From the NCBI RefSeq assembly GCF_963676685.1, contig NC_092353.1, forward strand, positions 53,692,001-53,756,000: 64,000 nucleotides of DNA. The letters are read 5' to 3'. This DNA comes from Mytilus edulis. Its lineage: Eukaryota. Shown here in pieces: positions 3,198 to 56,757 of the stretch; the first letter of the stretch is position 1; the number at the start of each line of letters is the position of its first letter. Position numbers and translations under genes: made by a program. The notes beneath the pieces are model-generated. The model was not told the origin of the DNA and did no database searches. It saw only the letters and a list, made by a program, of their open reading frames with translations.

Positions 3198-3582
3198 TGT
3201 TACTAACTGGATGTTTCTGTTTTGGCCCCATCATAGATTCGAGTTTATTTGTATTGAACCAGAATCCTGAAGACAGCTTATCGAGAATCTAGAGACAAAT
3301 ATTAGAGAAAATATTAACTACTTACGATTCATTATAATTTATAGGTACACGTTTAGGTGAACTACGTTGGTATAAATAAACAACGAAATAACATTTTCAA
3401 CAAGGTTTATATTTGTAAGAATTAAACTAAAATTTGAAGAAAACGCGAAATAGAATTGAGATGTGGGATATATGGTAATGAGACAAGAACCCAACGTCGA
3501 CAAGATACACTATAAATACACCACCAGACATTGAACATGAATAAAACAAAATGGTGGGTCTATGTAAGTGAGACAACAATCC

Positions 3583-4690
3583 GTGGCATGATTGTCAATC
3601 AGAAGATGTGGTATGATTGTCAATCAGAAGATGTGGTATGATTGTCAATCAGAAGATGTGGCATGATTGTCAATCAGAAGATGTGGTATGATTGTCAATC
3701 AGAAGATGTGGCATGATTGTCAATCAGAAGATGTGGTATGATTGTCAATCAGAAGATGTGGTATGATTGTCACTTAGGAGACTTGGCTTGATTTTCAATA
3801 ATGAGATGTGGTACGATTTTCCATAATGAGATGTGGTATGATTGGCAATAAAGAGATGTCGTAATTGTAAATATAAATAAATAGTAAGATGTGATTTGAT
3901 TGTCAATAAGAAGATATGGCAGGATTGATAATGAGTATGTGTGGCTAGATTGATAGTTATAAGAGACCGTAAACCAAAGACAACATATAATGAAAAGAAT
4001 CAAATGAATATGAATATAAGACGTTGTATGATTGCCTTTAAAAAGATACATTCTATGGGTATAATTGATAGTTAGGAGAGGCAGTAACGATTGTCAAAAA
4101 GCTGATGTGGCTTTAATGTTATTAAGGAGATGTTGTCTATTAATCATTAGAGAGATGTAGTTTAAAGGTCAGTGAGAGATGTGACTTGATGTCAATAAGG
4201 AGATGTGGCTTGCAGTTTTATAAGGAGAAGTGGCTTGATTGTCAATCAGGAGATGTGGTTAAATTGTCAATAATGATATATGGCTTGAAGCTCAATGAGG
4301 AGATGTAGCGCCAAGGTCAATAGGGAGCTGTGGCTTGTTATTCGATAAGGAAATGTGGCTTGAAAGTGAATAAGGATATGTTGATTCATTATCATTGAGG
4401 AGCTATGGCTTGATTTTCAATAATGAGATATGGATTGTAGGTCAATACGGAGACGTGGTTTCATTATCATTTGAGAGATGTGACTTGACTGTCAATAACG
4501 AGATGTGGCTTGATTGGCAATAAGGAAATGTGACTTGTTTGTCAATAAAGACATGTGGTATGATTGTCAATAAAGCAAAGTGCTTAGATTTTCAAGACAT
4601 ACATGTAATTAGGAAAATGTGGTATGATTGTAAATAAAAAGACGTGGTTTAAGTGTAAATAAATAGACTTGGTTTGAGTGTAAATATTAT
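3583..4690 (+). repeat. 25 bp minisatellite (gtggtatgattgtcaatcagaagat)n, near-perfect 3583-3772 then degenerate
   Basis: Directly visible tandem units. Confidence 0.9.
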
Positions 4691-11666: not shown

Positions 11667-14249
11667 GTATGTTATTTTAGCAACATGTAATGTTATAGTA
11701 TATTCCACATTTAGTAATACAGCACATATGGTATGATTGAAAACACAAAAAATAACAACTCATGCACAAAGGTAAAGACAATTACAGATTATCACAAAGC
11801 CTTCAACAATGAACAAACCCATGTTGTATAGCATGCTATAAAAGACTCAGGTACGACACAATATGACACAATTTTTTCATACTACAACAATAATAGTAGA
11901 CACCAGCCAACAAAAACTGCTGTATAACAGGTCCTTTGAAAAAAATTACAACGTCGTGGTTATTAACAAGGTCATGGCAACAAACAAAACACAACAAAAA
12001 GACGAAGAAATCTACAAAACGTAAAATAGAAATCTATATCTTTTGGCAATTAAAATGTGACACCTTGTTTTATTTCATGTAATATTTGAATGAGTCGCAT
12101 GTCAAAAGACAAGGTGTTGTTGAAATGATTATGTTATCTAATCTCTCTAACCTTGACTTTAATAAACTTTATACAAAGTGAAATTCGAGGAGGTGACAAC
12201 ATAAACTTAATACAAGAGATAACCGATTTGTTTGATAACGAGAACAGAAGAATATTTTGAAATTCTCATAAATGTTGACTTTTGTCGTAAATATGTTGAT
12301 AACTGAGAGAGACTTTAAGGTTAAACTCGTTGATTTTTAAGATATCCATGTTTTCTTTTACTACTGAGTGAATTTACGAGAATAAACAGTAAAGAGATGT
12401 GTGTGTATAGTTTTATAAATACGAACGACTGAAAACCTCGCCACTTTAATCCTTCTTGCTGATTTGTTCAACCATCTCTCGATATATTTGTAAGCAGCAG
12501 ATACCATTTTGAAATCCGACAAAAAATCGCTGCATTCTTATTTTGAAGATTTTCGAAAAAATGTTAACTTTTGATCAATTTCATACAACTCATCTCGAAA
12601 TTTTGATAAAAATTCAAACAGCTCTATTTGAGCGATTATGTTGGTTGACACCGTGTGTGATATGGGATATTTTAATTAGATACGGTAACCTAGATAAATA
12701 GATTTATTTTTCGCGTTCAATGACGAAATTAAAATGTGGGTTGATATTAGCTTTGCAACCGTGATTCATATCGATATCAACCCTGTTAACATATACAGAT
12801 CATTGGCAATGTTCGTACTACCCATACAATTAACTCATTTACTACTAATTACATATTTAAAATGGTTTATATCACGTGCAATACGAAGGCACAGTCTAAC
12901 TATCCCGAGTCATTAGCCTGTAATTCGGTGGTGTGTCTGTTATACGTTTATTTTTATTGTTTGGTTTTTAATCGTGTTTGATTTTTTTGACACTATGACC
13001 TGAATTATCATTGATATTTTCCAATGGCATGCAGTATAAAGCGATTTGGCACCCTTTCATACGTCCACCGTCGATCCGTCCGTTTGTACGACTTGTCGGT
13101 AACTGCATCCTGTAAAGTACAATTAGCTTCAACAAAAATCACAAAAAAAGATACAAATGTTTCAAGTCATTAAAGATCTCCCGGTCCTTTAGAGAGGCCA
13201 CGCTGAATCAAACAGGAAATAAAACTCCCGGCATTCCCGATTGTAACATTTTTATTTTCAAGTGTTATAAACAAAAAAGTTACCAAATATATAAGTTTAT
13301 ATGTATGCTGGCGTTTGTTTTTATAGCAGATCATTGTTTCTGTTGTTCTGTTGTTTCCCTCTTATAGTTATGTGTTTCCCTCTGTTTTTGGTTTAGTGAA
13401 TTGCATTTGTTTTAGTTAAGTCGACTTATGACGATTAAACAGCGATACACTACTATTGCCTCTTTATAACACCACACTACTTGGCCTTTTTATCAAACTG
13501 ATTAAGTTATGTAGATCCAAACCAACAAGTAACACATCAACACACGACAACAACTCGTTAGTTTGATTGACTATGTTATATTTGTACATACATTAGACCG
13601 TTATTGTTTTCGTTTGTATTGTTTTACAGTTGTAATATCGGGGCCTTTTAAAGCTGAATATGCGGCATGGTCTTTATTCATGGTTAAAGGCTGTACGGGT
13701 ACTTTTGTTGCTTTTTCTATGTCATGTGGTCTCTTGTTGAGAGTTGTACTATACAACATCTTCTTTTTTATAGATATTAAAATGCGTACGTATGGCGCGC
13801 CGGTTTTGTATTGATATATTTGTACATGCTAAGTAGCATTCGCTATTATAGCGTTTATATATTTAAAAGTTATTAAGAACGCACATGTATATTTATAGGA
13901 TGCAGGCTTCATTGTAAGGGTGGTGCTCCGTGAATGAAAACTCTCCTGAAAGACTAATGAAAAAGAAGGACTGAAGTCGACGCTTTATTATGATCATGGT
14001 CACCAACACGAATTAGCTGACCAAAGCGATGTATCTTATAAAATCCGCTATGATCCATATTAGAATTAATATTGTGTATGCCAGAGGTGCGTTTTGTCCA
14101 CAACAGATCAACTAGTGACTATTGGATCAAAAAGAAAAACAAGGCAACAAAAAAAGTCAAAGAGCACGGAGGAGACGATTCCGAATGTATTTGTCTCAAT
14201 TAACCACCACCATATTGGCTTAATAAACTAGACTACACAGGCAAATTTT

Positions 14250-14755
14250 GCTCACGTGATTTTCACGTGAATCTCATTTCACGTGAATTTCACATAAATT
14301 TCACGTTAATTTCACGTGAATTTCACATGAATTTCACGTGAAGTGATTTTACGTGAAATTCACGTTAACTTTTTACGTGAATTTCACGTGAAGAGATTTC
14401 ACGTGAAATTCACATTAAATTTTCACGTGAATTTTACGTGAAATTATTTCACATGAATTTCACGTAAAAATTTCATGTGAATTTCACGTGAAAAAATATA
14501 AATGGTGTCTAAGTTATAAAAAATTAACTGAAAATCAAAAATTTTCACAACATCTCATACCTTGTATTATATGTATCATATGTTCCCTGGGAATCTATTT
14601 AATTTTAAAAATTCTAATTTCACGTGAAATTCACGTGAATATTTCACGTGAAATTCATGTGAAAATATTCATGTTATATTTACGTGAAAAATTTCACGTT
14701 AAATTTACGTGAACAATTTCAAATGAAATTAACATGAATCAAAACCCCTGTGAAA
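14250..14755. repeat. Left subterminal array of palindromic ttCACGTGaa units
   Basis: Directly visible, about 11 bp periodicity. Confidence 0.9.
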
Positions 14756-17071: not shown

Positions 17072-18340
17072 ATGTGGAGGTGCTCCTTTGTAAGGATGCT
17101 TATAAACGAAATAATTATTTATATGTTCCAAGAATTTGTATAGTATATATCAAAAGAATGGGGATACATTTTTTTAACATGGAGAAATGCTTTGACCATC
17201 AGCAAGATATCCTCCAATCTCTAGTCCGGATCCGGATTCGGATTTTTAAAAACGCTTGAAAGATACAGATTATGACGCGTTTTGAAGAGAAGGACGCAGC
17301 CGATTGTCAACAACAATAATACTTGTTTTAGCTAATTTAACAAGACAACTAATACCAAGGAGCTATGAATATTAATAAATACTCGAGGATATACTACAGG
17401 TAACTCAAACAAATGATTTAATAGTGCAGGAATAAACAGAAATCTGCAATGACTGAATGTTTTCATCTTCGAGTTTGGTACAGTGACTTACATCAAATTA
17501 TACATGTAGTGTCCCTTCGACATGATTCACGTTCGACCAAGCACCTGTTTGCCTATGATCGATTCGCCCTGATTTTTTTTTATATGTTGTCTACTTGCAT
17601 AATGTTTATTATTTGAACAGAGTATGGCAAAGAATGTTGAAAAATTCGGCGAATATGTGTATTGCTGCAAACAAAAAATTATTTTCCCTTTAATTTTGTT
17701 TAAGTACGTACTTTAATATCTTTATTGATATTTGTTTACTGTTACAATTCATGCAGTATTATAACAGAGACATATATAATAAATAAACTGTCTGTTTGTT
17801 GTGAATCCGGGTCCGTTCGCCCTGATTCACGTTTGCCCTGGTATCTGTTCGCCCTGATTCCTGTTCGCCCAGGGTCCATTCGCCCTGATTTTTTTATTTT
17901 TTTCTAATTGTTCTGATTTCATAGTTTTAAGTATTTGAACGAAATATGTTAAAGTTTGTTGAAAAATTGACAGAATATTTATCATGTTTATATTCCCGCA
18001 ATCAATTTATCATTTTCGCTTTGATTTACAGAGTAAAATACTGGAATACAATTTATTTCTCTTTATTGATTACTACGTATACTTTCAGAGTATAATACTA
18101 AATGAACATGTAAACATACATGTTTCATGATTTACAGTTCGTACATCATTGTTTTTATTAATTTCCAGCTATATATTTTATCAAAAACAAAACGTTTGAT
18201 TTTTATTAATAATCCATCAAAAGACTAGTATCACAATAATCAGTGATCCGAATTATTTTGTCATTGAACAATTTTAATGATCCTAAACAAGCCATACACT
18301 TAAATATTTCCCTGTTTCCATAAATTTCAAGAATATATAC

Positions 18341-18648
18341 TAAAGTGTTATTTGGCCTGTCTCGCTGAGCTCTATGGTTACCCGAGGGGTTGATACAAGC
18401 TATGCTTAGTGTAAGAGTGCCCTTACCTTCCTACAAGGTGTCAGTCCCAGCTAACCTCGTCTAGCCCCAGATATCAGGCGCATTGCCTTGCTCGTTCCGT
18501 GGTGAGAGAGCGATGTCATCGAGGAAGAGGCTGGAAGTACCCAACTGTTACGTCATGTCATGTGTCCCTTCGGATCCCTCGGTGATGTACCAGTACCCGT
18601 GTGACAGGTTGGGGAAACCCCCTAGAACTACGGGGCAATTACACTACA
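18341..18648 (-). repeat. 3' LTR (TGTAGT...CTTTA on minus strand)
   Basis: Direct repeat of 24542-24849. Confidence 0.95.
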
Positions 18649-18660
18649 CCCCCCTCCATC
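18649..18660 (-). promoter_or_regulatory. Polypurine tract
   Basis: Minus strand GATGGAGGGGGG immediately precedes the 3' LTR. Confidence 0.85.
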
Positions 18661-19662
18661 TTAAAAAGGAGGAACTACAGTTCCGACAAAAACGACTGTA
18701 TATCTTACTAAAACTCCCAAGGGGAAGACTGGCAACGTCTTTTACTAATTAAACCATGACACAGGGTATCCTAAGTATCCACCCCCCTTAATCCTGGATA
18801 AGGGGAAAATTGACAAAACTTAATATTTCCCAAGGAAAAAAAAAATAATTTAATTACCCATGTAAAAATAAACATATGAAAATCGAGCTCTGAACAGCTA
18901 TCTTATCTATGGAGTACCAAACTCCCAACAATTTACACACCAGAGTTGCCACAGGGTGCCAACCTCAACAGGTTCTTCAGGACAAATAACAGCCGAACTC
19001 CAGGTCGACCATAGCCATATGCTATTCCAACTTATACAGTCCTGGACATGGGTCTCATTACAAGACAATAAACTGCGTGCTCAACACGTCTAAAAACCCT
19101 GACTCTGTGTAATGTTCACATACATATACATGTATCAACTGTTCAGACCTTAACTGACAAAAATCATACTTCAAAATATAAAACTATCTCAATGTCTAAA
19201 TGACAAGTTCATTAATACCGCCCTGAATTTCCAAATGAAACTAACTAACATGTACATGTATATCTTTATACATAATTTACAACCGACTAAATACTATAGG
19301 TCTATAATCCCAAAACTGGGAAGGATGTACATGACCATAAATAATTTGACTCTTTGTCAAAAAAAAAAACCACATATATAGTGCCTCTATATAAGGATGC
19401 ATTTAACTATTTTACTACTTTAATAGTTAGTATCACCAAAATTTACATAATAACAGGGTCATGACACCACTCTTATATATCTGTTTCAACTTTTCAACAT
19501 ATTTGTACACTTTACATGTGAGAGTGTGAAGCAAAAAAAAAAAAAAAAAAAAAACTAATAAAAATCACAGAAAATACAAAACTGGTTCACACTCAACATA
19601 ATTTCAAAGGCGTTAAATCCCAAACTGGGAAAACTGTTCTTTTTTTTTTTTTTACAATTTTA

Positions 19663-22600
19663 TTACTGAAGGCGCCTCACTTCAATGTGAGGACGGTGAC
19701 CTAACAGGTCAAAACATACACTATCTTCTAAGACTGTTCCCTCACAGATCAGTGAAACATTCCCACTTTCAGGGAATCTATCTTTTACTACCTTGTACAG
19801 TTCCGTCACAGAACTTACTCTTGCCATACACTGCAAACCTTCATACTGTATAACCACAAGTGTTGGAACTTGAGGGCTCTGACTCAACTTGAGATGTGAA
19901 GAAGAATGCTCTACCTGGGATTCAGCTAGTTGTGAAATTTGGCGTCCTAGGAGAAGTGCGGTTTCATTCTTTGGAGTATGGTGTGCATTTGTTTCATTGT
20001 CAGCAATATTGGACTGCAATTTTCTCTTTTTGCTAGATGTTTCAGTGTTCAAACTTTCACTCTCATGGTGAATTTCTTCTATTTCGTCCATTACTATGGT
20101 ACGTCCTTCTTGTTCAGACTGAACATTGTCTTCCTCCCCTTCTTTTTGAGGGATTGCTGACTCATCTTGAGCTTTGTTAACAAACACTGGCCAGAAACTG
20201 GCATTCATCTCAGCAAGTTCCTCAGGTTCAGGAGGATTTCTAGGATTGTAGCTAAATCCTTCGGCTACCATATCTTGTTGTTCAGGGCTTAAAAAGTTTA
20301 GAACTGAAGTAAGGACTCTCCAGTTGAGTAAACAGGCAGGGCTGTTTATCGGTCGCAAGCTATATCTGAAATAGTCTGTCCATCCCATCTCTTTACAAAC
20401 TGTACGATGGACTTGAATTTGTATCCCTGTAACATGTGTAGAACGGGGCACAAAAGACTTCTCATTGAGGAAATTCACCAAGTCTTTGGCAGTCACTGTT
20501 TCCTGCCTGGTTAACCATTTTGCTAGGAGCATAACCACATAAGCTCTATGTTGGTGAAATCTTCTGTCCTCCATCAGTCTTTTGGAATGATAGGTCTGAA
20601 AGATATCAGAAAGATGTTCTTCAAAACAATGTCGTTTTACGTCTCTTCTATCGACCACTACTTGGCAGTTCTTTACAGGACATTTACGGTCTGTTCGACT
20701 TTGAACACAAGTCCTCTCCCTTTTTCCACTTTTGGGACAAGTATAAAACCCAAGGCTCTCTCTTGATTCTACCTTGTCAACCCTACTGTCTCTACATTGA
20801 TCAGGCTCAGATCCCTGTGTAGATGTTGAGGCCCTCATGGCTAGGTTAGAATCTACTTGAGGAACGACTGTTTCAAGATGAAATTCAGCATTTTGCCTGC
20901 TGGCTGGGAACCTTTGTGTTGACCCTTCTGTTCTGGGTTTCTTATCTGACGATGAATCTGAAGTGTTCTTTCCATGAACAACGTTGACATTAGGTTCATG
21001 AGTTATATTTTCATCTTCTAGTAAAAGTGACATGTTCCTATTCTGTACAGTTAATGTTAGTTCTCTTATATTCATGACAACTCTATTATGCATGATAAAG
21101 TCACATCCCAGTATCATATCACATGAAACTGGAGCTACATACAGTTGTTGATTGATCTGTATATCTCCAATCTTAAACTTTATAGGACTAGAAAGCCTGC
21201 ATGGCATTGTCATGTTGGTACCAGCACCATGCATAGTAGTCTCCTTGATAACATAGGGCTTAGGCTCCAAAGTGTCAAAAATTGTGTCCTTAAGAATAGT
21301 TACTTCAGAACCTGAATCAACTAGAGCGAGTACTTTCTTTTCCGCAATATATACTTCAACTCTAAAGAGTTTGGCTGATCCTAGTGATCTAACTGTACTG
21401 ATTCCAGATACTACTCCTTCAGATTCATGAGAATCGTCTTTGTTATTCTCATCAAAAGATACTTGTTGAGATGTTGGCTCTTTCTGTACTGACTGTCTTT
21501 CTGTTTTTTGTACATAAAGTTCTGGACAGTCTTTGATATAATGACCTTGCTGGTGACAATTAAAGCATTCATTATTATAATAACCCTGTCTGGTATATCT
21601 CCTGTCCCCAGAGTTATTCCCTCGCCCTCGACCATAATTACCAGTAGGCGAATAATCAGAATACCTGTTGTCTTGATTAGGTGACCTAGAATTAGGACTG
21701 GTTCCATGTTTGACTGATTGTTCCTGAACCAAACTGGTTACTGTTGACATCATTTTCTTTATATGTTCTTCTATGCGAGAGAGACGATTATCCATACTGG
21801 ACTTGATGCTACCTACACCAAGAACTACTGGTGAGTTAACTGACTTCTCTGAAAGAGACTCCTCCTTCTTGCTAGTTTTCTGAATGGCACTGACTGCCTT
21901 CCTAGTGTGCTGACACCATCTAATCATATCCAAGGCTGCATCCATGGACTTTGGTTTAGAGATACAAGCTTCTGTTCCAGCAACAGTATCATTACAACCC
22001 TGACAAAACCTCATGATTGCCTGTTCAGTCATTAGTTGTTCACTGTACCTGCTATAGGCTCTAGTGGCGAGAGTCAACACTCTTTCCGACCACTCCTCCA
22101 AGGTCTCCTTTTCTCCTTGGGCACTTGTCTGGAACTGAACCTGTGAGGTTTCTGGCAATTCTTGATGACCAAATCTCTTATTCATATTGGATACAATATC
22201 AGAAAAACTTGCTGTTTTGTTATTTTCTAGGATTAAGGTGTAATACTCACTGGCTGCATCATCTAGGCACCAGCAGAGCTGTTCCCTTTTTTGTTTATCT
22301 GTCCACTCGGCCATTTTAGCATAACTAGAAAACTTGGTATAAAAGGCTTTCCAGTTGCCCTTCCCATTATAGCGGAGCGTTTTCGGGATCGAGGACAGAA
22401 ATTGTCTTTTCTCTATTTTCTCCTTTTGTCTACTTTCCTGACTGCTTTCAGAACTTTGACCATCTGTGTCAGATTCTGATCGGGAGTCACTAGACATTTT
22501 AGACCTTCTAGGACTTGAACGACTACGGTGTAATGGAAAACTCCTTACACTTCTTAAAGGTGAGAAATCACGCTGTTGATTCTTATGAGGTCTGTTGTAC

Positions 22601-24069
22601 TCAGGTTCTGACCTTCGCTTTGTTCTGGACTGGCGGTATGCTGAAACATTTGACATGTCAGAATCACCTATATATTTATGTCTAGGATCACTTCTTTCTT
22701 GTCTCCCATAGTAATCACTATTATATTCATTCTGTCTTGCTGAAGGTTGGTTGTAATGCAGCTGAGGTGCTCCTGATGGGGGAGGTTGCTGCTGTGTGCC
22801 AGGCATAGGTAACTGAGGCACGTGTAATAGTTGTGACTGACCCAAACTTGGGTACGTTAAACCAGGTATGAATTGATGGTTGTAAGGCATTAAATTTGTT
22901 GGTGCTTGTGGCGGTGGTTCACCTCTAGGAGGTTGATACATAGAAGTTGGGTGACCAATCATCTTATGTTGTTGAACTTCTGGTACAGAACTTGGTGGTT
23001 GAAACCTTGGTTCTGGATAATTTGGTTTTTGATGAACAACTTCACTAACCTGTTGTTGTAGCCGCTGTTGAGGTATAGAAACCGGCGCTGCAGCTAGATG
23101 TTGTTGTTGCACAGGCTGTGCATAGTTAATGACCCCTTGTTGAAGCTGGTCTAGCCGTTGTTGTAGGCATTGTACTTTATGTTGCATTTGCACTCTTTGT
23201 TGACTCTTGTTGACTTCCAGTCGGTGAAGACTATTGAAGCCATGTTGATATTGGTCGACATAGTGGTGCTCATGTTGTACACTTGGTGAAAAGTGAACAT
23301 GGTCAGATGTAGGTGTATGTAAGAACCTTGGTTGTTGGTCATAATCAGGGCTTTTATATCTTGGCGGAGTCTGTTGCACCTCTTGTTGATGGTTGCAATC
23401 TTCCTGTTGATCTACTATAGGGTTTTGAATATGCCAGTTCTGGCTAAGCGGTATGAACATTCTGTCATATGGGACATCACCGTCCTGTTGACTGTCTGGT
23501 TGAGGGTGTGCAACCATGTTGATCCTTGGTGGTTGAGTATGATACTCATTGCTACAAACACTCAGGTCTGAGTTCAAACTCTCTGAAGAAAGGCTCTCCT
23601 GTGATGGTTCACAATGTAACTGCTCTAACATAGTTAAATGTTCAGAACGACTTTGTATTTGTTCCAGGCGATGTTTGTCCCATTCAAGACTGGAGCAGGC
23701 TCCATCCTCTGAGCAAGATGATTCTACCTCATCTTGAGTACCTGTATCCTTAAAACTTGAACAAGGATACTCCTCTGGCTCCATATCAACAATCACATGA
23801 TCAGGCTTTGGAGGCAACATACTCACAGAACAGGCTCCGTCACGGACAGCTTCCCTGAGCTCAGCTCTTGGTCTTCGTGAAAAATCAATTATACCCAGAA
23901 TACCTTCTGTCACTCTCAAGTGTGGAATTTGGAATAAAACATCTCTATCAATGTGGATACCTTTTGCCCTAATATCCATGATCCTTCCTGCTATGGCCTC
24001 CCCTATGCCAGGTATGCAGGTAAGTATTACCTTAGGACAGGTGTTAATATTGATCATGTACCCCTGCAT
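19663..24069 (-). CDS. gag-pro: 1468 aa polyprotein: ComEA-like helix-hairpin-helix, Q/P- and RS-rich linker, Gag capsid-like, CCHC knuckle, retropepsin, C2H2-like finger plus unknown domain, C-terminal ubiquitin-like segment
   Basis: ININTC..ILTCIPGIGEAIAGRIMDIR (HhH); YNGKGNWKAFYTKF...W (Gag); CFNCHQQGHYIKDC; ALVDSGSEVTIL...MILGCDF; CPVKNC-x11-HCFEEH; VSLICEGTVLED. No YxDD, RNase H or DDE region. Confidence 0.9.
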   Translation of the reverse strand: MQGYMININTCPKVILTCIPGIGEAIAGRIMDIRAKGIHIDRDVLFQIPHLRVTEGILGIIDFSRRPRAELREAVRDGACSVSMLPPKPDHVIVDMEPEEYPCSSFKDTGTQDEVESSCSEDGACSSLEWDKHRLEQIQSRSEHLTMLEQLHCEPSQESLSSESLNSDLSVCSNEYHTQPPRINMVAHPQPDSQQDGDVPYDRMFIPLSQNWHIQNPIVDQQEDCNHQQEVQQTPPRYKSPDYDQQPRFLHTPTSDHVHFSPSVQHEHHYVDQYQHGFNSLHRLEVNKSQQRVQMQHKVQCLQQRLDQLQQGVINYAQPVQQQHLAAAPVSIPQQRLQQQVSEVVHQKPNYPEPRFQPPSSVPEVQQHKMIGHPTSMYQPPRGEPPPQAPTNLMPYNHQFIPGLTYPSLGQSQLLHVPQLPMPGTQQQPPPSGAPQLHYNQPSARQNEYNSDYYGRQERSDPRHKYIGDSDMSNVSAYRQSRTKRRSEPEYNRPHKNQQRDFSPLRSVRSFPLHRSRSSPRRSKMSSDSRSESDTDGQSSESSQESRQKEKIEKRQFLSSIPKTLRYNGKGNWKAFYTKFSSYAKMAEWTDKQKREQLCWCLDDAASEYYTLILENNKTASFSDIVSNMNKRFGHQELPETSQVQFQTSAQGEKETLEEWSERVLTLATRAYSRYSEQLMTEQAIMRFCQGCNDTVAGTEACISKPKSMDAALDMIRWCQHTRKAVSAIQKTSKKEESLSEKSVNSPVVLGVGSIKSSMDNRLSRIEEHIKKMMSTVTSLVQEQSVKHGTSPNSRSPNQDNRYSDYSPTGNYGRGRGNNSGDRRYTRQGYYNNECFNCHQQGHYIKDCPELYVQKTERQSVQKEPTSQQVSFDENNKDDSHESEGVVSGISTVRSLGSAKLFRVEVYIAEKKVLALVDSGSEVTILKDTIFDTLEPKPYVIKETTMHGAGTNMTMPCRLSSPIKFKIGDIQINQQLYVAPVSCDMILGCDFIMHNRVVMNIRELTLTVQNRNMSLLLEDENITHEPNVNVVHGKNTSDSSSDKKPRTEGSTQRFPASRQNAEFHLETVVPQVDSNLAMRASTSTQGSEPDQCRDSRVDKVESRESLGFYTCPKSGKRERTCVQSRTDRKCPVKNCQVVVDRRDVKRHCFEEHLSDIFQTYHSKRLMEDRRFHQHRAYVVMLLAKWLTRQETVTAKDLVNFLNEKSFVPRSTHVTGIQIQVHRTVCKEMGWTDYFRYSLRPINSPACLLNWRVLTSVLNFLSPEQQDMVAEGFSYNPRNPPEPEELAEMNASFWPVFVNKAQDESAIPQKEGEEDNVQSEQEGRTIVMDEIEEIHHESESLNTETSSKKRKLQSNIADNETNAHHTPKNETALLLGRQISQLAESQVEHSSSHLKLSQSPQVPTLVVIQYEGLQCMARVSSVTELYKVVKDRFPESGNVSLICEGTVLEDSVCFDLLGHRPHIEVRRLQ

Positions 24070-24522: not shown

Positions 24523-24540
24523 AACCACCCGCAACTACCA
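24523..24540 (-). promoter_or_regulatory. Putative primer binding site
   Basis: Minus strand TGGTAGTTGCGGGTGGTT begins 1 nt after the 5' LTR. Cognate tRNA not assigned. Confidence 0.65.
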
Positions 24541-24541
24541 G

Positions 24542-24849
24542 TAAAGTGTTATTTGGCCTGTCTCGCTGAGCTCTATGGTTACCCGAGGGGTTGATACAAG
24601 CTATGCTTAGTGTAAGAGTGCCCTTACCTTCCTACAAGGTGTCAGTCCCAGCTAACCTCGTCTAGCCCCAGATATCAGGCGCATTGCCTTGCTCGTTCCG
24701 TGGTGAGAGAGCGATGTCATCGAGGAAGAGGCTGGAAGTACCCAACTGTTACGTCATGTCATGTGTCCCTTCGGATCCCTCGGTGATGTACCAGTACCCG
24801 TGTGACAGGTTGGGGAAACCCCCTAGAACTACGGGGCAATTACACTACA
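24542..24849 (-). repeat. 5' LTR
   Basis: Direct repeat of 18341-18648. Confidence 0.95.
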
Positions 24850-25654
24850 ATACCATAGAAATATCTGAATAAGTTTATTCAACTTAAATGCCCTGAATAT
24901 TAATATTTTTTAAGTAGGGCGAACGATCTCAGGGCGAACTTACCCAGGGCGAACATGTTATTGGGGCGAACAGTCCCGATACCGTTTGTTGTCTCTTTGA
25001 CATCATTCCACATTTCTATTCTCAATTTTATCAAAATACTTTTCATGTTTTACAATTCGTATACATTGTATGTACAAAAAATGAACATCATTGTTTTTAC
25101 TCATTTTTGACTACTTTATCAAAACAAAACGTTATTTACGGTCTCACTAATTAGCGACAAGAAGAATATTTGTTTATGATTCAAACCGATAATACATTGT
25201 ACATGTTGTACTACATGTATCTTATCTATGATTAACTTAAAGTCATATATATAGATAACAAAACAGTTGCAGTTTAATATTACATACATTTGTACATTTG
25301 TACATGACACAGGACAATCACTGACAAGTTTCAAGACTTGCTAGCCAGCTAGCAGTAACTGAAAGCCAGCACAAATACCTAATCTGTCGTACACTCTTAT
25401 TTTGCGGGTGGCTGTACCTCACTTTTTACATTAGATACCCTTTAACACCATATCATAAGGAAAACAATTGTTGATTTCTCTTAATCAAACATTTGGATAA
25501 CAATTTATAGAAAACTACCACAAGGGCCAGGGGATTTCCAGTTAGGGGAGGGAAATGTTCCCATACATTTTTGTAAGTCTTGCACTGGCGAAATGGTATG
25601 AATCAATAATCATGATATATACATTTTTGTAACTACAACAAGACGATACAATAT

Positions 25655-34269: not shown

Positions 34270-34560
34270 CTGAATTCACTTTAATTTCATTTTTTTTAAA
34301 AGAAGCTCGATTCACGTTTATTTCACGTGAAAAGTTCACGTGAGTTTCACGTGAAGGCTCAATTCACGTGAATTTCACATGTAAAATTTCACGTGAATTT
34401 CACGTTAATCTCAATTCACGTGAATTTCACATCAGATTCACGGGAAATTCACGAGAAAATTTTCACGTGAGTTTCATGTATAAGCTCGTTTGAGGTGAAT
34501 CTCACGTGAAAAATTTCACGTGAAATTCACGTGAATTTCACGTGATATTTACGTGAACAA
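34270..34560. repeat. Right subterminal array of ttCACGTGaa units
   Basis: Directly visible. Confidence 0.9.
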
Positions 34561-46449: not shown

Positions 46450-49400
46450 TGATTATCAATTAGGATATTCGGTCATGATTATCAATACGGAGCTTTTGTC
46501 ATGATTATCAATAAGGAGATTCGGACATGATAGTCAATAAGGAGATTCGGGATGATTATCAATATGGAGATTCGGACATGATTGTCAATAAGGAGATTTA
46601 GACATGATTGTCAAAAAGGCGATTCGGTCACGACTGTCAATAAGGAGATTCGGAATGATAATCAATAATGACATTTAGACATAATTGTCAATAAGGAGAT
46701 TTCGACATGATTGTCAATAAGAAGATTCGGTCCCGACTATCAATAACGAGATTCGGTCCCAATTGTCCATAAGGAGATTCGGGATGATTATCAATAAGGA
46801 TATTTGGACATGATAGTCAATAAGGAGATTCGGTCCCAACTGTCAATAAGGAGATTCTGGATAATTATCAATAAGGACATTTGGACATGATTGCCAATAA
46901 TGAGGTCGGTAATGATTGTTAATAATTAAATTCGGTCATGATTGTCAATAAAGATATTCGGACATGATTGTCAATAAGGAGATTTGGTCATGTTTGTCAA
47001 TAGGGAAATTCGGTCCTGATTGTCAATATGGAAGATAAAGAAAATGTGGTATTACGTATATGAATATGTTAGACAGTGTGAAAATAAGAAAAAAAATCAA
47101 TACGCATTAAATACGTTGAATGATTATCAATAAGGAGATTCGGACATGATTGTTGATAACACATGGATAAGGAAATTTGGTCATGATTATTAATAAGGAG
47201 ATTTGGACATCATTGTGAATACTGAGGTCGGTCATGATTGTCAACTACGAAATTCGGTCAAGATTTACAATAAGGAAATTCGGTCATGATTGACAATAAG
47301 GAAATTCGGTCATGATTTTCAATAAAGATATTCAGTCCTGGTTATCAATAAGGATATTTGGACATTATTGTCAATAAGCAGATTAGGTCATGATTGTCAA
47401 TAAGGAAATTCGGTCCGGATTGTCAATAAGGAGATTCGGACATTATTGTCAATCAGGAGATTCAGTCCCGATTGTCAATAAGGAGATTCGGTCATGATTT
47501 TCAATAAAGAGATTCAGTCCTGGTTATCAATAAGGATATTTGGACATTATTGTCAATAAGGAGATTTGGACATGATTGTCAATAAGAAGATTTGGACATG
47601 ATTGTCAATAAGGAGATTTGGACATGATTGTCAATAAGGAGGTCGGTCATGATTGTTAATAAGGAAATTCGGTCATGATTTTCAATAAAGAGAGTCGGTC
47701 ATGGTTACCAATAAGGAGATTTTGACATGATTGTCACTAAGGAGATTATGTCATGATTGCCCAGAGGGAAATTTGGTCATGATTGTCAATAAGGAGATTC
47801 GGGATGATTATCTATAAGGAGATGTGGACATGGTGGTCAATAAAGAGGTCGGTCATGAATGTTAATCAGGAAATTCGGTCATAATTTTCAGTAAAGAGAT
47901 TCGGTCATGGTTATCAATAAGGAGATTTACGCAAGATTGTCTATAAGGAGATTAGGTCCTGATTGTCAATATGAAAATTCGGTCTTGAGTGTCAAAAAGG
48001 AGATTTTGACATGATTGTCAATAGGGAGAGTCGGTCACGATTGTCAATAAGGAGATTCGGTCCCGATTGTCAATAATGAGATTCAGAATGATTATCATTA
48101 AGGACATTTGGACATGATTGTCAATAATGAGATTCGGTTCCGATTGTCTATTAGGAGATTAGGATATCATTGTCAATAAGGAAGATAAGAAAGATGATGG
48201 TATTACGTATATAAATAGCTTGGGCAATGAAATAAGAAAAATAATCCTAACGCATTTAATACGTTGTATGATTATCAATCAGGAGATTCGGACATTTTTG
48301 TTAATAAGGAAATTCGGTCATGCTTATCAAAAAGGAGATTTAGGCATGATTGTCAATAAGGAGGTCGGACATTATTGTCAATAAGGAAATTTGGTAATGA
48401 TTTTCAATAAGGAGATTCGGTCGTGATTGTCAATAAGGAAATTCGGTCATTCTTATAAATAAGAAGATTTAGTCAGTTTTGTCAATAAGGAGATCATGTC
48501 ATGAATGTCAATAAGGAGATTCGGTCCTGATTTCCAGTAAGGAACTTCGGTCATGATTATCAATAATGAGATTTGGACATGTTTGTCAATAAGACGACGT
48601 ACTATGAGTATCAAAGAGAAGAGATGGTATGATTGTCAATAGGAAGATGTTGTATGATTGCCTATTAGAAAATGTTGTACGATTGTCAATAATGAGATGT
48701 GATATGATTGCCTATAAGAAAAGAGGGACGAAAGATACCAAAGGGACAGTCAAACTCATAAATCTAAAACAAACTGACAACGCCATGGCTAAAAATGAAA
48801 AAAAAACCCAGAAAAACAAAAGAACACATGACACAACATAGAAAACTAAAGAATAAACAACACGAACCCCACCAAAAACTAGGGGTGATCTCAGGTGCTC
48901 CGGAAGGGTAAGCAGATCCTGTTCCACATGTGGCACCCGTCGTGTTGCTTATGTGATTACAAATCCGGTAAATAGTCTAATTCGGTAGGTCACATTTATG
49001 ATTTTCGATAAGAAATGTAGTATGATGGTCAATAAGAAGATTGCTTTCATTTTCAATAATGAGATGCAGAATGAGTTTCAATTAGGTGACGTGATATGTA
49101 TTGTTGTATGATTGCTAATACGGCAATGTCATAAAAATGTCAATTTGTTAACGTGGTACGATTTTTCAATAAGAAAATGAGTTATGATTGTCAATAATGA
49201 GTATTGTATGATTGAAAATATCTAAATAGCAAGATGTGGTTTGATTGTGGGTAGAAGATATAGCAAAATATTTAATGACTAGATGTGGCTTAATGAGAAT
49301 ATGATATAACGAATTATTATGAATAAAAAGCGCTGTATGATTGTCATTAAGAAAATATAGGTGCGATTGATATCAAAGAGAGGCAATCACGATGGTCAAT

Positions 49401-54149: not shown

Positions 54150-54950
54150 GTTTGATTATCACTAAGGAAGGTCAGTCATGATTGTCAATAAGACGACGGG
54201 CTATATATGAATGTCAATTCGGAAACGTGGCATTCTTTTTATGTAAAAAGGTAAAAGTATGATAATCAATAATGGAATGTAGTATGATGGTAAAAAAAGA
54301 AGTTGTAAGATTTTAGATATATATAGATAGATGATTGATTGTCAACAATGAGGTATGGCAGGATTATTAATTAGTAGAGTAGATTCCTTATCATTTATAT
54401 AAGGAGATGTTGCTTGCTTGTCAATTAGGATATTTGGTTTCATTATCCTTAACATGATTAAGGAAATGTAGCTTGAAGGTCAAGGTGAATATTTGGTTTC
54501 ATCATCATTTGTGAGGTGTGTTTCATTATTATTTGTGAGATGCGGTTTCATTATCATTTGTGAGATGTAGTTAAATTGTCGATACAAAGATGTTGCGTGA
54601 TTGTCATTGAGAAGATTTAGCTGGATTGTCAATATGGAGATGTAGCTGAATTGTCAATAAGGAGATGTGACTTGGAGAACACTAGTGAGATGTGGCTTGA
54701 CTGTCATTTAGGATCTGTGGTTTGATTGTCAGTAATTAAAGTGACGTGCTATGATTATCAAGACATAAATCATAAAATGTGGTTTGATTGTCAATGCTGA
54801 AATGTGGTTTGATTGTCAATAATAAGATGTGGTATGGTTGTCTATAAGGAGATGTGGTATGGTTGTCTATAAGGAGATGTGGTATGGTTGTCAATAAAAA
54901 TATGTGGTATAATTGTTTATAAGGAGATGTTTTATGATTGTAAATTAAGC
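54150..54950 (+). repeat. Third array of the 25 bp minisatellite
   Basis: aaggagatgtggtatggttgtctat units, clearest at 54770-54945. Confidence 0.8.
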
Positions 54951-56757
54951 GACAACTTTGTCTGCTTTGATTCTTGTAGATATTGATTCGATATATTGAG
55001 TTTTTTTTTTATTATGGCAAGATAAACATCAAGATACAATTTTGTTCCGGGCTGATGATTTTGTGCAGAGTAACATGTATGGTCCTTTGAATTTGAAAAT
55101 CACTCAGATCATCACTTTTCCGTATTAGATCAAGTTTGAATTTGTTCCAATACAATGTTTTTGAACCGGTAGAGGACTATATGTTGCCATACACTATTCA
55201 CATAATGCTGGTTTTTTTTTTTGGAATTGGCTAATTTTGGGGTACATAGTTTAAGAAATGTGTCTGGTGACCCAACCTACCAAGATTGTCATCTTGGCTT
55301 AAAATATAACAAAAAATATATTCAAGATTTGTCTATGATTTCGAAAACTGCTATTAGTAGAGAAACTGACAGGACAGAATGTCGAGCTCTACTTTTTGCT
55401 CTAACTGTCAAAACTGTAACATGTATAAGACTTATGGTAGTCACTGCTTTTTTTCTTCAATTTTGCTTATTATCATTATATCTTATTACTATAACATGTA
55501 TAATAGATACAGAAAAACCTGCAGTTACACGAATGATCAATAAGACAAGTTCTACAAATAACTCGAATGGTTGAACTCATTAGTTAATTACTCATAACAG
55601 TAAATGCCTTTTGATGACTAATTTAAAAATTACCATACTTGTAGTTTGTTTGTTTTTTTTTTTTTTTTTGTCTTAGATCGTCATTATCATCATATACATA
55701 ATATATAATTCGATAAGCAAAAATTATCAGCAGGATAACAATGGAATGAAAAAAATCCTATAAAGATGTTTGAAAAGTCTGTTGGTAGGCTTTGAAGTCT
55801 TTTTTGAAGATTTTTGTATTTCTTTTAAGAAATTATTCTATAGGCTATAGCTATTTAATTATCAAAATGTAGCACTATTTAGTATATTGGTAGGTTGCAA
55901 ATGTTCAACTGGTTTAAGCTATTACTTTTAAAGATAGATATTAAATTGCATGATAAGACGGGTAGGTGTTTCTTAATACATAGTTTTTTTTATCTAATTT
56001 TATTTTTCTATATATTTTTTAATGATTTGAATGTTGGCGATTTTAGAAAAGAGGTGGTACTTGTTTGAAAGATTAAAACCTGTCAAATAGGGGTACCTGT
56101 TAAAATCATTCGGAAGTTTGGGAAGTTGTCGATCAGGATTAATCCTTATTATGGGATTATATCTATATATTACATCCGAAAAGTTTGGCGAACAGTACTG
56201 TTCAGAACGTTTTCAAATATGGTGAAGTTGGCGAATATGGGTACTGTTTAGAATGATGGCAATATTGGCGAAGTTGACGAACAGAGGTACTGTTCAGAAT
56301 GTTAGCGGCGTTGCGAAATTGGCAAACAAGGGTCCTGTTCAGAATGATTGCGACTTGGCACACAGGTTGTCGGGTTGTCGAACATTTCCAAAATCCTGTA
56401 CCCGCCGGCCAAACAAGAAAAAAAGTAAATAAGGAGAATTTGCCTATTCAAGGCATCAAGAGAAAAAATAGGATTGTCATGGGAAATGACCTTATACATT
56501 TTGTAAAGGCGAAACATACGCATCGTATCACCAGCCCGGTAGCCAGTACTTCGGTAATGGCATGAAAATACGGATTTTTTTTGTGTTATTAAACTTTGCT
56601 GTTACAAAATGATAGAAATTATTATAAATTAAGGAATGTATCTCCCTCATGCAAAGCTCTGATTCCTTTCACGGATTTAGCTATACTTTTTGGACCTTTT
56701 GGATTATAGCTCTTCCTCTTTTATATAAGCTTTGGATTTCAAATATTTTGGCCACGA

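Follow-up and report, generated by a model that had tools for sequence, protein, structure and literature searches.

Several described systems resemble parts of the element reported here. In MLV p12 and foamy virus Gag, modules derived from Gag attach pre-integration complexes that contain capsid to chromatin (PMC6021111). These modules are short nucleosome-binding peptides, whereas the candidate tether of this study is a folded domain of a DNA-binding type; on the grounds of analogy, MLV p12 and foamy virus Gag would be the best functional counterparts. The helix-hairpin-helix (HhH) domain itself is found in bacterial ComEA, which is secreted or membrane-anchored, and in EEPD1, a host genome-maintenance protein with two HhH domains, which are flexibly tethered and bind dsDNA only in multiples (PMC12988330). 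The Ty3/Gypsy elements described from molluscs (C-clade, AB-clade, MolGy1-16 and CsRN1), the clades of which are defined by RT/RNase H, have LTRs, a PBS, a PPT and the order Gag-PR-RT-RH-IN, as do the autonomous relatives of the present element (PMC6238403). Juno and Vesta of bdelloid rotifers likewise have a non-env ORF3 with enzyme cargo in the slot of the third gene; their enzymes are, however, a DEDDy exonuclease or a GDSL esterase (PMC5408684). The words 'helix' and 'PHD' are absent from the main text of two mollusc transposable element surveys, one of them PMC6238403, and 'helix' and 'TatD' from the main text of PMC5408684. The sole retrotransposon paper found to use 'helix-hairpin-helix' for a region shared with Gag concerns the N-terminal region of CERV of C. 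elegans Cer1 (PMC10309623). There the phrase covers a domain with a potential leucine zipper, and from this description alone we read the region as a helical hairpin rather than a ComEA motif. No HhH-carrying Gag, TatD-carrying Gypsy element or Tpt1-carrying LTR element was found in the literature searched, which was mostly judged by listing; supplements, Repbase and subscription journals were outside its scope and may hold such elements, perhaps as MolGy. To our knowledge, the delivery of cDNA to chromosomes is understood for only a few envelope-less LTR elements.

The window, by which we mean the whole stretch of 64,000 nucleotides of Mytilus edulis DNA that was analyzed, contains an LTR element of 6,509 bp (Table 1). 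Its two LTRs are identical, and the insertion is therefore young. The sequence resembling a primer-binding site has 18 exact matches, mostly at element copies already found.

Table 1. Positions of the features of the window element and of domains in related loci (L numbers)
Feature	Position	Strand	Basis
ComEA-type HhH domain, Gag aa 1-64	23878..24069	minus	Pfam HHH_3; model and fold match to 8dss; alignments
First hairpin of the HhH, G21-I22-G23	24009-24001	minus	Alignments
5' LTR, 308 bp, TGTAGTG...CACTTTA	24542..24849	minus	100% identical to 3' LTR
3' LTR, 308 bp	18341..18648	minus
Primer-binding-site-like sequence, begins TGG	24523..24540	minus	Common to autonomous relatives L039, L040, L042
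Polypurine tract	18649..18662	minus
4-bp target-site duplication, ATAC	18337..18340; second copy 24850-24853	n/a
Single open ORF, 1,468 aa, HhH-linker-CA-CCHC-protease-domain X-C-terminal domain	19663..24069	minus
Q/S/P-rich low-complexity linker, ~490 aa, HhH to capsid	22405..23871	minus	Q 13%, S 12%, P 11%
Gag capsid domain (aa 583-692 Pfam region)	21835..22404	minus	PNMA E 1.2e-6; Retrotrans_gag E 2.6e-6
CCHC zinc knuckle (nucleocapsid)	21520..21570	minus	Pfam zf-CCHC under cut-off; motif visible in translation
Aspartic protease, DSG motif	21088..21360	minus	Pfam Asp_protease_2 E 3.3e-6
Domain X, C2H2-like finger and helical domain	20140..20760	minus	46% identity to ORF3 of L039/L040
C-terminal ~75-aa domain, common to ORF3 of closest families	19666..19890	minus
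TatD at end of third ORF of autonomous relatives	L075:884-3079; L076:2362-4248; L127:7494-8966; L130:8044-9561; L132:897-2372		Pfam E 1e-36 to 1e-43
Tpt1/KptA (RNA 2'-phosphotransferase) at Pol start, one sub-branch	L055:3536-8998; L059; L070		E 8e-36
PHD finger at integrase C-terminus, one of two sub-lineages	L038-L044; L055; L059; L061

Pfam detected no RT, RNase H or integrase in the window ORF. The order PR-RT-RH-IN is present in the close relatives L038-L042. The lack of these enzymes, together with the presence of domains homologous to a separate third ORF, indicates that the window copy is a non-autonomous internal-deletion derivative in which a third-gene domain has been fused in frame. 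Two of the autonomous relatives, L039 and L040, have the same PBS, PPT and LTR ends as the window element and are its likely helper family. The window copy is unable to move alone; it would be mobilized in trans, supplying its own HhH-Gag. The fusion of Gag, protease and domain X constitutes a separate family with six fully open copies (the window copy and L031-L035) of 90-100% identity, and matches spanning the fusion junction reach down to 78% identity. In the capsid domain, the pN/pS of the window copy against its five sister copies was 0.08-0.25, and silent changes outnumber replacement changes in both the capsid and domain X of this family, which argues that the non-autonomous element retains a selected protein.

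It is worth noting that the HhH codons (23872-24069) of the window copy and L031-L033 show no silent or replacement differences at all, whereas their capsid domains differ by 3-17 silent changes. This suggests that recombination homogenized the 5' part among these copies. The relatives that bear names are all from Mytilus, and in two of them the HhH domain is identical.

An earlier note on this DNA had proposed, from a peptide corresponding to ORF residues 6-37 (24054-23959 on the minus strand), that a ComEA-like HhH domain, not a canonical Gag module, is fused to the N-terminus of Gag. Profile and fold comparisons bore out both points. Pfam HHH_3 (PF12836) matched the N-terminal 80-aa piece at E 3.2e-6 and 27.6 bits, just above the cut-off of 27 bits; in the full-length protein the match fell below it (E 2e-4, 21.8 bits). 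Many relatives score 28-41 bits. An AlphaFold2 model predicted from 25 natural copies had a pLDDT of 91, and its top structural neighbor among 48,161 chains was Geobacillus ComEA (8dss; Z 9.9, rmsd 1.7 A, 62 aligned residues), followed by 2duy (Z 8.0), Tex (Z 7.8) and, lower, Spt6 (Z 5.1). Foldseek also placed 8dss first, at an E value of only 0.1. When the 25-copy profile was compared with PDB sequences, EEPD1 (9yi2; E 6e-11) and then ComEA (E 4e-9) came out on top. The predicted fold is the same as that of ComEA (8dss, 8dfk and 2duy) over the whole domain, with the common pattern IN-x-N-T...L..LPGIG...A..I...R. BAF was not among the 50 best fold matches listed.

The earlier note had named two observations that would refute its reading, namely the lack of any HhH profile or fold match and a translation start downstream of the segment; neither was made. 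The predicted start codon in the window precedes the motif: no earlier ATG occurs in this frame, and the nucleotide at -3 is A; an in-frame Met lies at most 12 codons upstream of the motif in 53/53 HhH element loci. A capsid domain follows in 52 of these 53, and the distance from the HhH N-terminus to the capsid domain is at least 200 codons. It might nevertheless be supposed that the segment is untranslated or a neutral passenger. The leader of 472 nt holds three short upstream ATG frames, and four raw RNA runs gave only 49, 69, 66 and 14 reads (198 in all, in both orientations) over 5.2 kb; three of these runs covered the HhH to a depth of about 1-3. These four runs showed no read joints over the element, and no element-bearing RNA was found among the indexed runs. 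The conserved Met argues against such a passenger, as do the retention of the HhH across families with widely differing RTs and the rates of change in the domain, which are far below those of a neutral sequence. Among 18 pairs tried, of which 7 were saturated, dN/dS of the HhH was 0.05-0.22 in 9 of the 11 measurable pairs; the other two, near-identical pairs with one synonymous change each, gave 0.60 and 0.79. In the branch of the window family the values were 0.12-0.22. Linker identity between distant families was 16-33%, a rough figure since some linkers cross frameshifts. These values indicate that the HhH domain is under purifying selection while the adjoining linker drifts, and we consider it very unlikely that the segment is untranslated or neutral.

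A survey of the mussel genome for the fusion, as the earlier note had suggested, found it to be a clade-wide trait. At least 53 element loci of this genome have the HhH at the start of Gag. Of the 100 candidates scored in the search with the HhH, 80 matched, and 40 loci were taken from these; in the search with HHH_3, 94 of the 150 candidates scored matched, and 16 loci were taken (11 HhH-Gag elements of the second sub-lineage, 2 host-like frames, 2 loci with partial exons from a different HhH protein, and 1 without a hit). Two further element loci came from the search with domain X. Most of the 53 were thus recruited through the HhH itself, and absence of the domain within the clade is under-sampled accordingly. 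In a protein search anchored on the capsid, in which the HhH was not used, 9 of 12 Gags had an N-terminal HhH; the other three may be N-terminally incomplete calls. Outside the clade, the HhH was absent from 52/52 RT loci of other Gypsy lineages, 28 of which have a recognizable capsid (32 and 20 loci from separate searches, the latter 20 outside the tree).

In the RT-RNase H tree, 13 HhH elements fall on one side of a branch with 100/99 support and 19 others on the opposite side; a larger, quick tree with 17 HhH elements in 49 rows agrees with this smaller, careful one. Within the careful tree the HhH elements divide into two sub-lineages, one with the PHD finger and one without. The row sister to them, L104, has no Gag in the stretch taken. 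Six of its relatives (L137-L142), sampled from the nearest sister lineage, all have Gag and lack the HhH. One locus, L119, has an integrase of the PHD branch, and the stretch sampled there shows no capsid and no HhH. A tree of the HhH domain itself (68 columns) groups 15 Gag HhH domains at 94/86 and repeats the two sub-lineages of the element tree, and a single capture at the base of the clade followed by vertical descent therefore seems likely. The donor could be a bacterial ComEA or the host two-domain HhH gene of the same genome (L121, which would be of the EEPD1 type): the two have similar scores (34-45 bits) and were not separated by the 68-column tree. A word search restricted to the HhH, with the full-length query, gave one relative. 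No Gag from outside Mytilus was found among the best 150 of 1.8 billion representatives, a listing swamped by multi-HhH proteins and thus uninformative on the range. As judged from these comparisons, the HhH-Gag is a real, selected and clade-defining domain fusion within Ty3/Gypsy, and a DNA-related function is a candidate only. A host-like frame at L124:1339-2373 has one divergent HHH_3 domain (E 3.5e-13), after which come a basic region and some short repeats.

The capacity of the domain to bind DNA was assessed residue by residue. The first hairpin has GxG in 26 of 33 aligned Gag copies, including GIG in the window; in 25 copies P20 and G23 are invariant and G21 nearly so. In HhH motifs these three positions make the backbone contacts to DNA. 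The second hairpin, in contrast, has GxG in none of the 33 copies; among 18 aligned bacterial domains, 15 carry GIG at this place and 2 carry GIK, and EEPD1 also has intact second hairpins. Three residues past the first hairpin, all five families of the non-PHD sub-lineage have K or R. This matches the position of the ComEA DNA-binding lysine, as mapped through the PDB profile match of the 25-copy HhH; the lysines reported are K63 in V. cholerae (PMC3879209) and K164/K166, with K164 in B. subtilis (PMC9747964). In the window family the first hairpin is followed by E-A-I, with Ile at the lysine position and no basic residue. Several natural ComEA-like proteins, in a sample chosen by likeness to the query, also lack that lysine. 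The net charge of the Gag HhH domains ranges from -6 to +3. After loss of either one of its HhH motifs, V. cholerae ComEA behaved as incapable of binding DNA (PMC3879209), and an isolated (HhH)2 pair of EEPD1 did not bind DNA, whereas four tethered domains did (PMC12988330). DNA binding by the Gag HhH is therefore no more than plausible from its residues and, because the second hairpin lacks GxG in every copy, would probably be weak and dependent on many copies.

The same residues allow the fold to be explained as a protein-contact module, serving Gag scaffolding or a grip on a host factor or on domain X, in which DNA binding has decayed. Loss of the second hairpin everywhere and of the basic residue in the window branch, where selection nevertheless persists, would be expected of such a module, and (HhH)2 domains are stated to mediate the XPF-ERCC1 and Mus81-Eme1 dimers (PMC12988330). 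The conservation of P20, G21 and G23 would then be hard to account for, and the (HhH)2 region of EEPD1 shows negligible self-association (PMC12988330). Prediction of a two-copy complex scored 0.02, which is uninformative on the dimer state either way. On balance we regard a purely protein-contacting role as unlikely. Weak binding that is made useful by many copies on the capsid is a reading that fits the observations for and against DNA binding alike.

The explanation which we favor, tentatively and with slightly less than even confidence, is by analogy that the Gag HhH serves as a capsid-surface tether of the particle to host chromosomal DNA. The Gag N-terminus faces outward in Ty3 and retroviral Gag lattices, and for this reason the HhH would be displayed outward. 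The domain would have a weak, sequence-independent grip on DNA; shown in many copies on the exterior of the capsid, it would bind by avidity, keep the particle attached to the chromosomal DNA of the host and bring the complex of cDNA and integrase to chromatin. In the sub-branch with a PHD finger, the integrase finger may then refine the target. Precedents exist for the tethering, in MLV p12 and foamy virus Gag (PMC6021111), and for the avidity, in the requirement of EEPD1 for several tethered (HhH)2 domains (PMC12988330). Counted against the tether are the missing GxG of the second hairpin, the non-basic character of the domain and the E-A-I of the window family. If a protease cut were made ahead of the capsid domain, moreover, it would remove the HhH from the mature particle.

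It is also conceivable that the HhH binds the nucleic acid of the element itself, by capture of genomic RNA or by BAF-like binding and compaction of cDNA. Tex and Spt6, the next fold matches, are RNA or ssDNA binders, and the HhH is retained in several derivatives without integrase. The CCHC knuckle of Gag, however, already serves RNA, and the Gag N-terminus, at least 200 codons from the capsid domain, is expected to lie outside the shell. LTR-element cDNA is made inside the shell. BAF, furthermore, acts as an obligate homodimer and joins two DNA duplexes, and a one-hairpin domain would be unable to bridge DNA in this way. Binding to the element's own nucleic acid would thus seem improbable. 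The earlier note had offered both compaction of cDNA and tethering to chromatin: the tethering suits the N-terminal and presumably outward position, while the BAF-like compaction fits poorly, because cDNA arises within the shell and the window copy has neither RT nor integrase.

Elements of the clade also have a third gene, which encodes a zinc-finger domain and usually a TatD nuclease. In the third ORFs the TatD motifs DxHxH, GE, two His and E-x-D look intact. Since nuclease-fold proteins, EEPD1 among them, make use of HhH domains, the Gag HhH could be the DNA-binding arm of a DNA-end processing kit with this TatD. Each of the two sub-lineages has HhH-Gag as well as TatD, and no TatD turned up in the 53 HhH-less RT loci, a count to be read with the fact that many outgroup stretches end ~2.4 kb past RNase H and cover third genes only partly. 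In the branch holding the window family, however, the third gene has lost TatD (absent from 4/4 examined), and the HhH is still under selection. A joint DNA-end processing role is, in our estimation, quite improbable. Third genes of the C2H2 type occur also in several HhH-less Gypsy lineages. A deletion derivative, L126, consists of Gag, protease and the TatD third gene without RT, and at L043:3296-8431 the HhH is joined in frame to RT-RNase H-integrase without capsid or protease.

Sub-branches of the clade add a PHD finger to the integrase, which is absent in the second HhH sub-lineage, or a Tpt1/KptA domain, a fragment of which persists in some short derivatives that have Gag only, among them L048 and L051. 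In domain X, C27, C32, H44 and H49 are invariant in 12 rows; its model (pLDDT 86.6) gave no PDB fold match at Z >=5, and the domain is a candidate new fold. The C-terminal domain of ~75 aa has no significant match in Pfam or PDB; by eye it looked ubiquitin-like, an idea that was dropped as the best ubiquitin-like PDB profile match was non-significant (E 0.65).

Taken as a whole, these features could describe an old, previously undescribed Gypsy lineage in mussels that coats its capsid with a captured DNA-binding HhH, with the PHD-integrase and the zinc-finger/TatD third gene cooperating; we consider this wider picture possible, and somewhat more likely to be wrong than right. If it is true, a folded, Gag-borne chromosome tether would be a route unlike the integrase-borne chromodomains or the retroviral peptide tethers, and the third gene would pair a TatD nuclease with a zinc-finger domain whose fold may be new. 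Natural variants with or without the DNA-binding lysine, in a small and foldable Gag domain, make the question of chromosome delivery directly testable. The HhH is also a simple marker of a large unnamed Gypsy clade. Many of these Gags stand in public annotation as Mytilus proteins labelled 'uncharacterised', TatD or TPT1, and host-gene counts for the TatD and TPT1 families may therefore be inflated.

Elsewhere in the window, tandem repeat arrays of 25-26 bp lie at 3480-4660, 46450-48720 and 54500-55030, and palindromic TTCACGTGAA arrays at 14240-14670 and 34310-34560. Both kinds of array have the appearance of common satellite repeats or of repeats at transposon ends.
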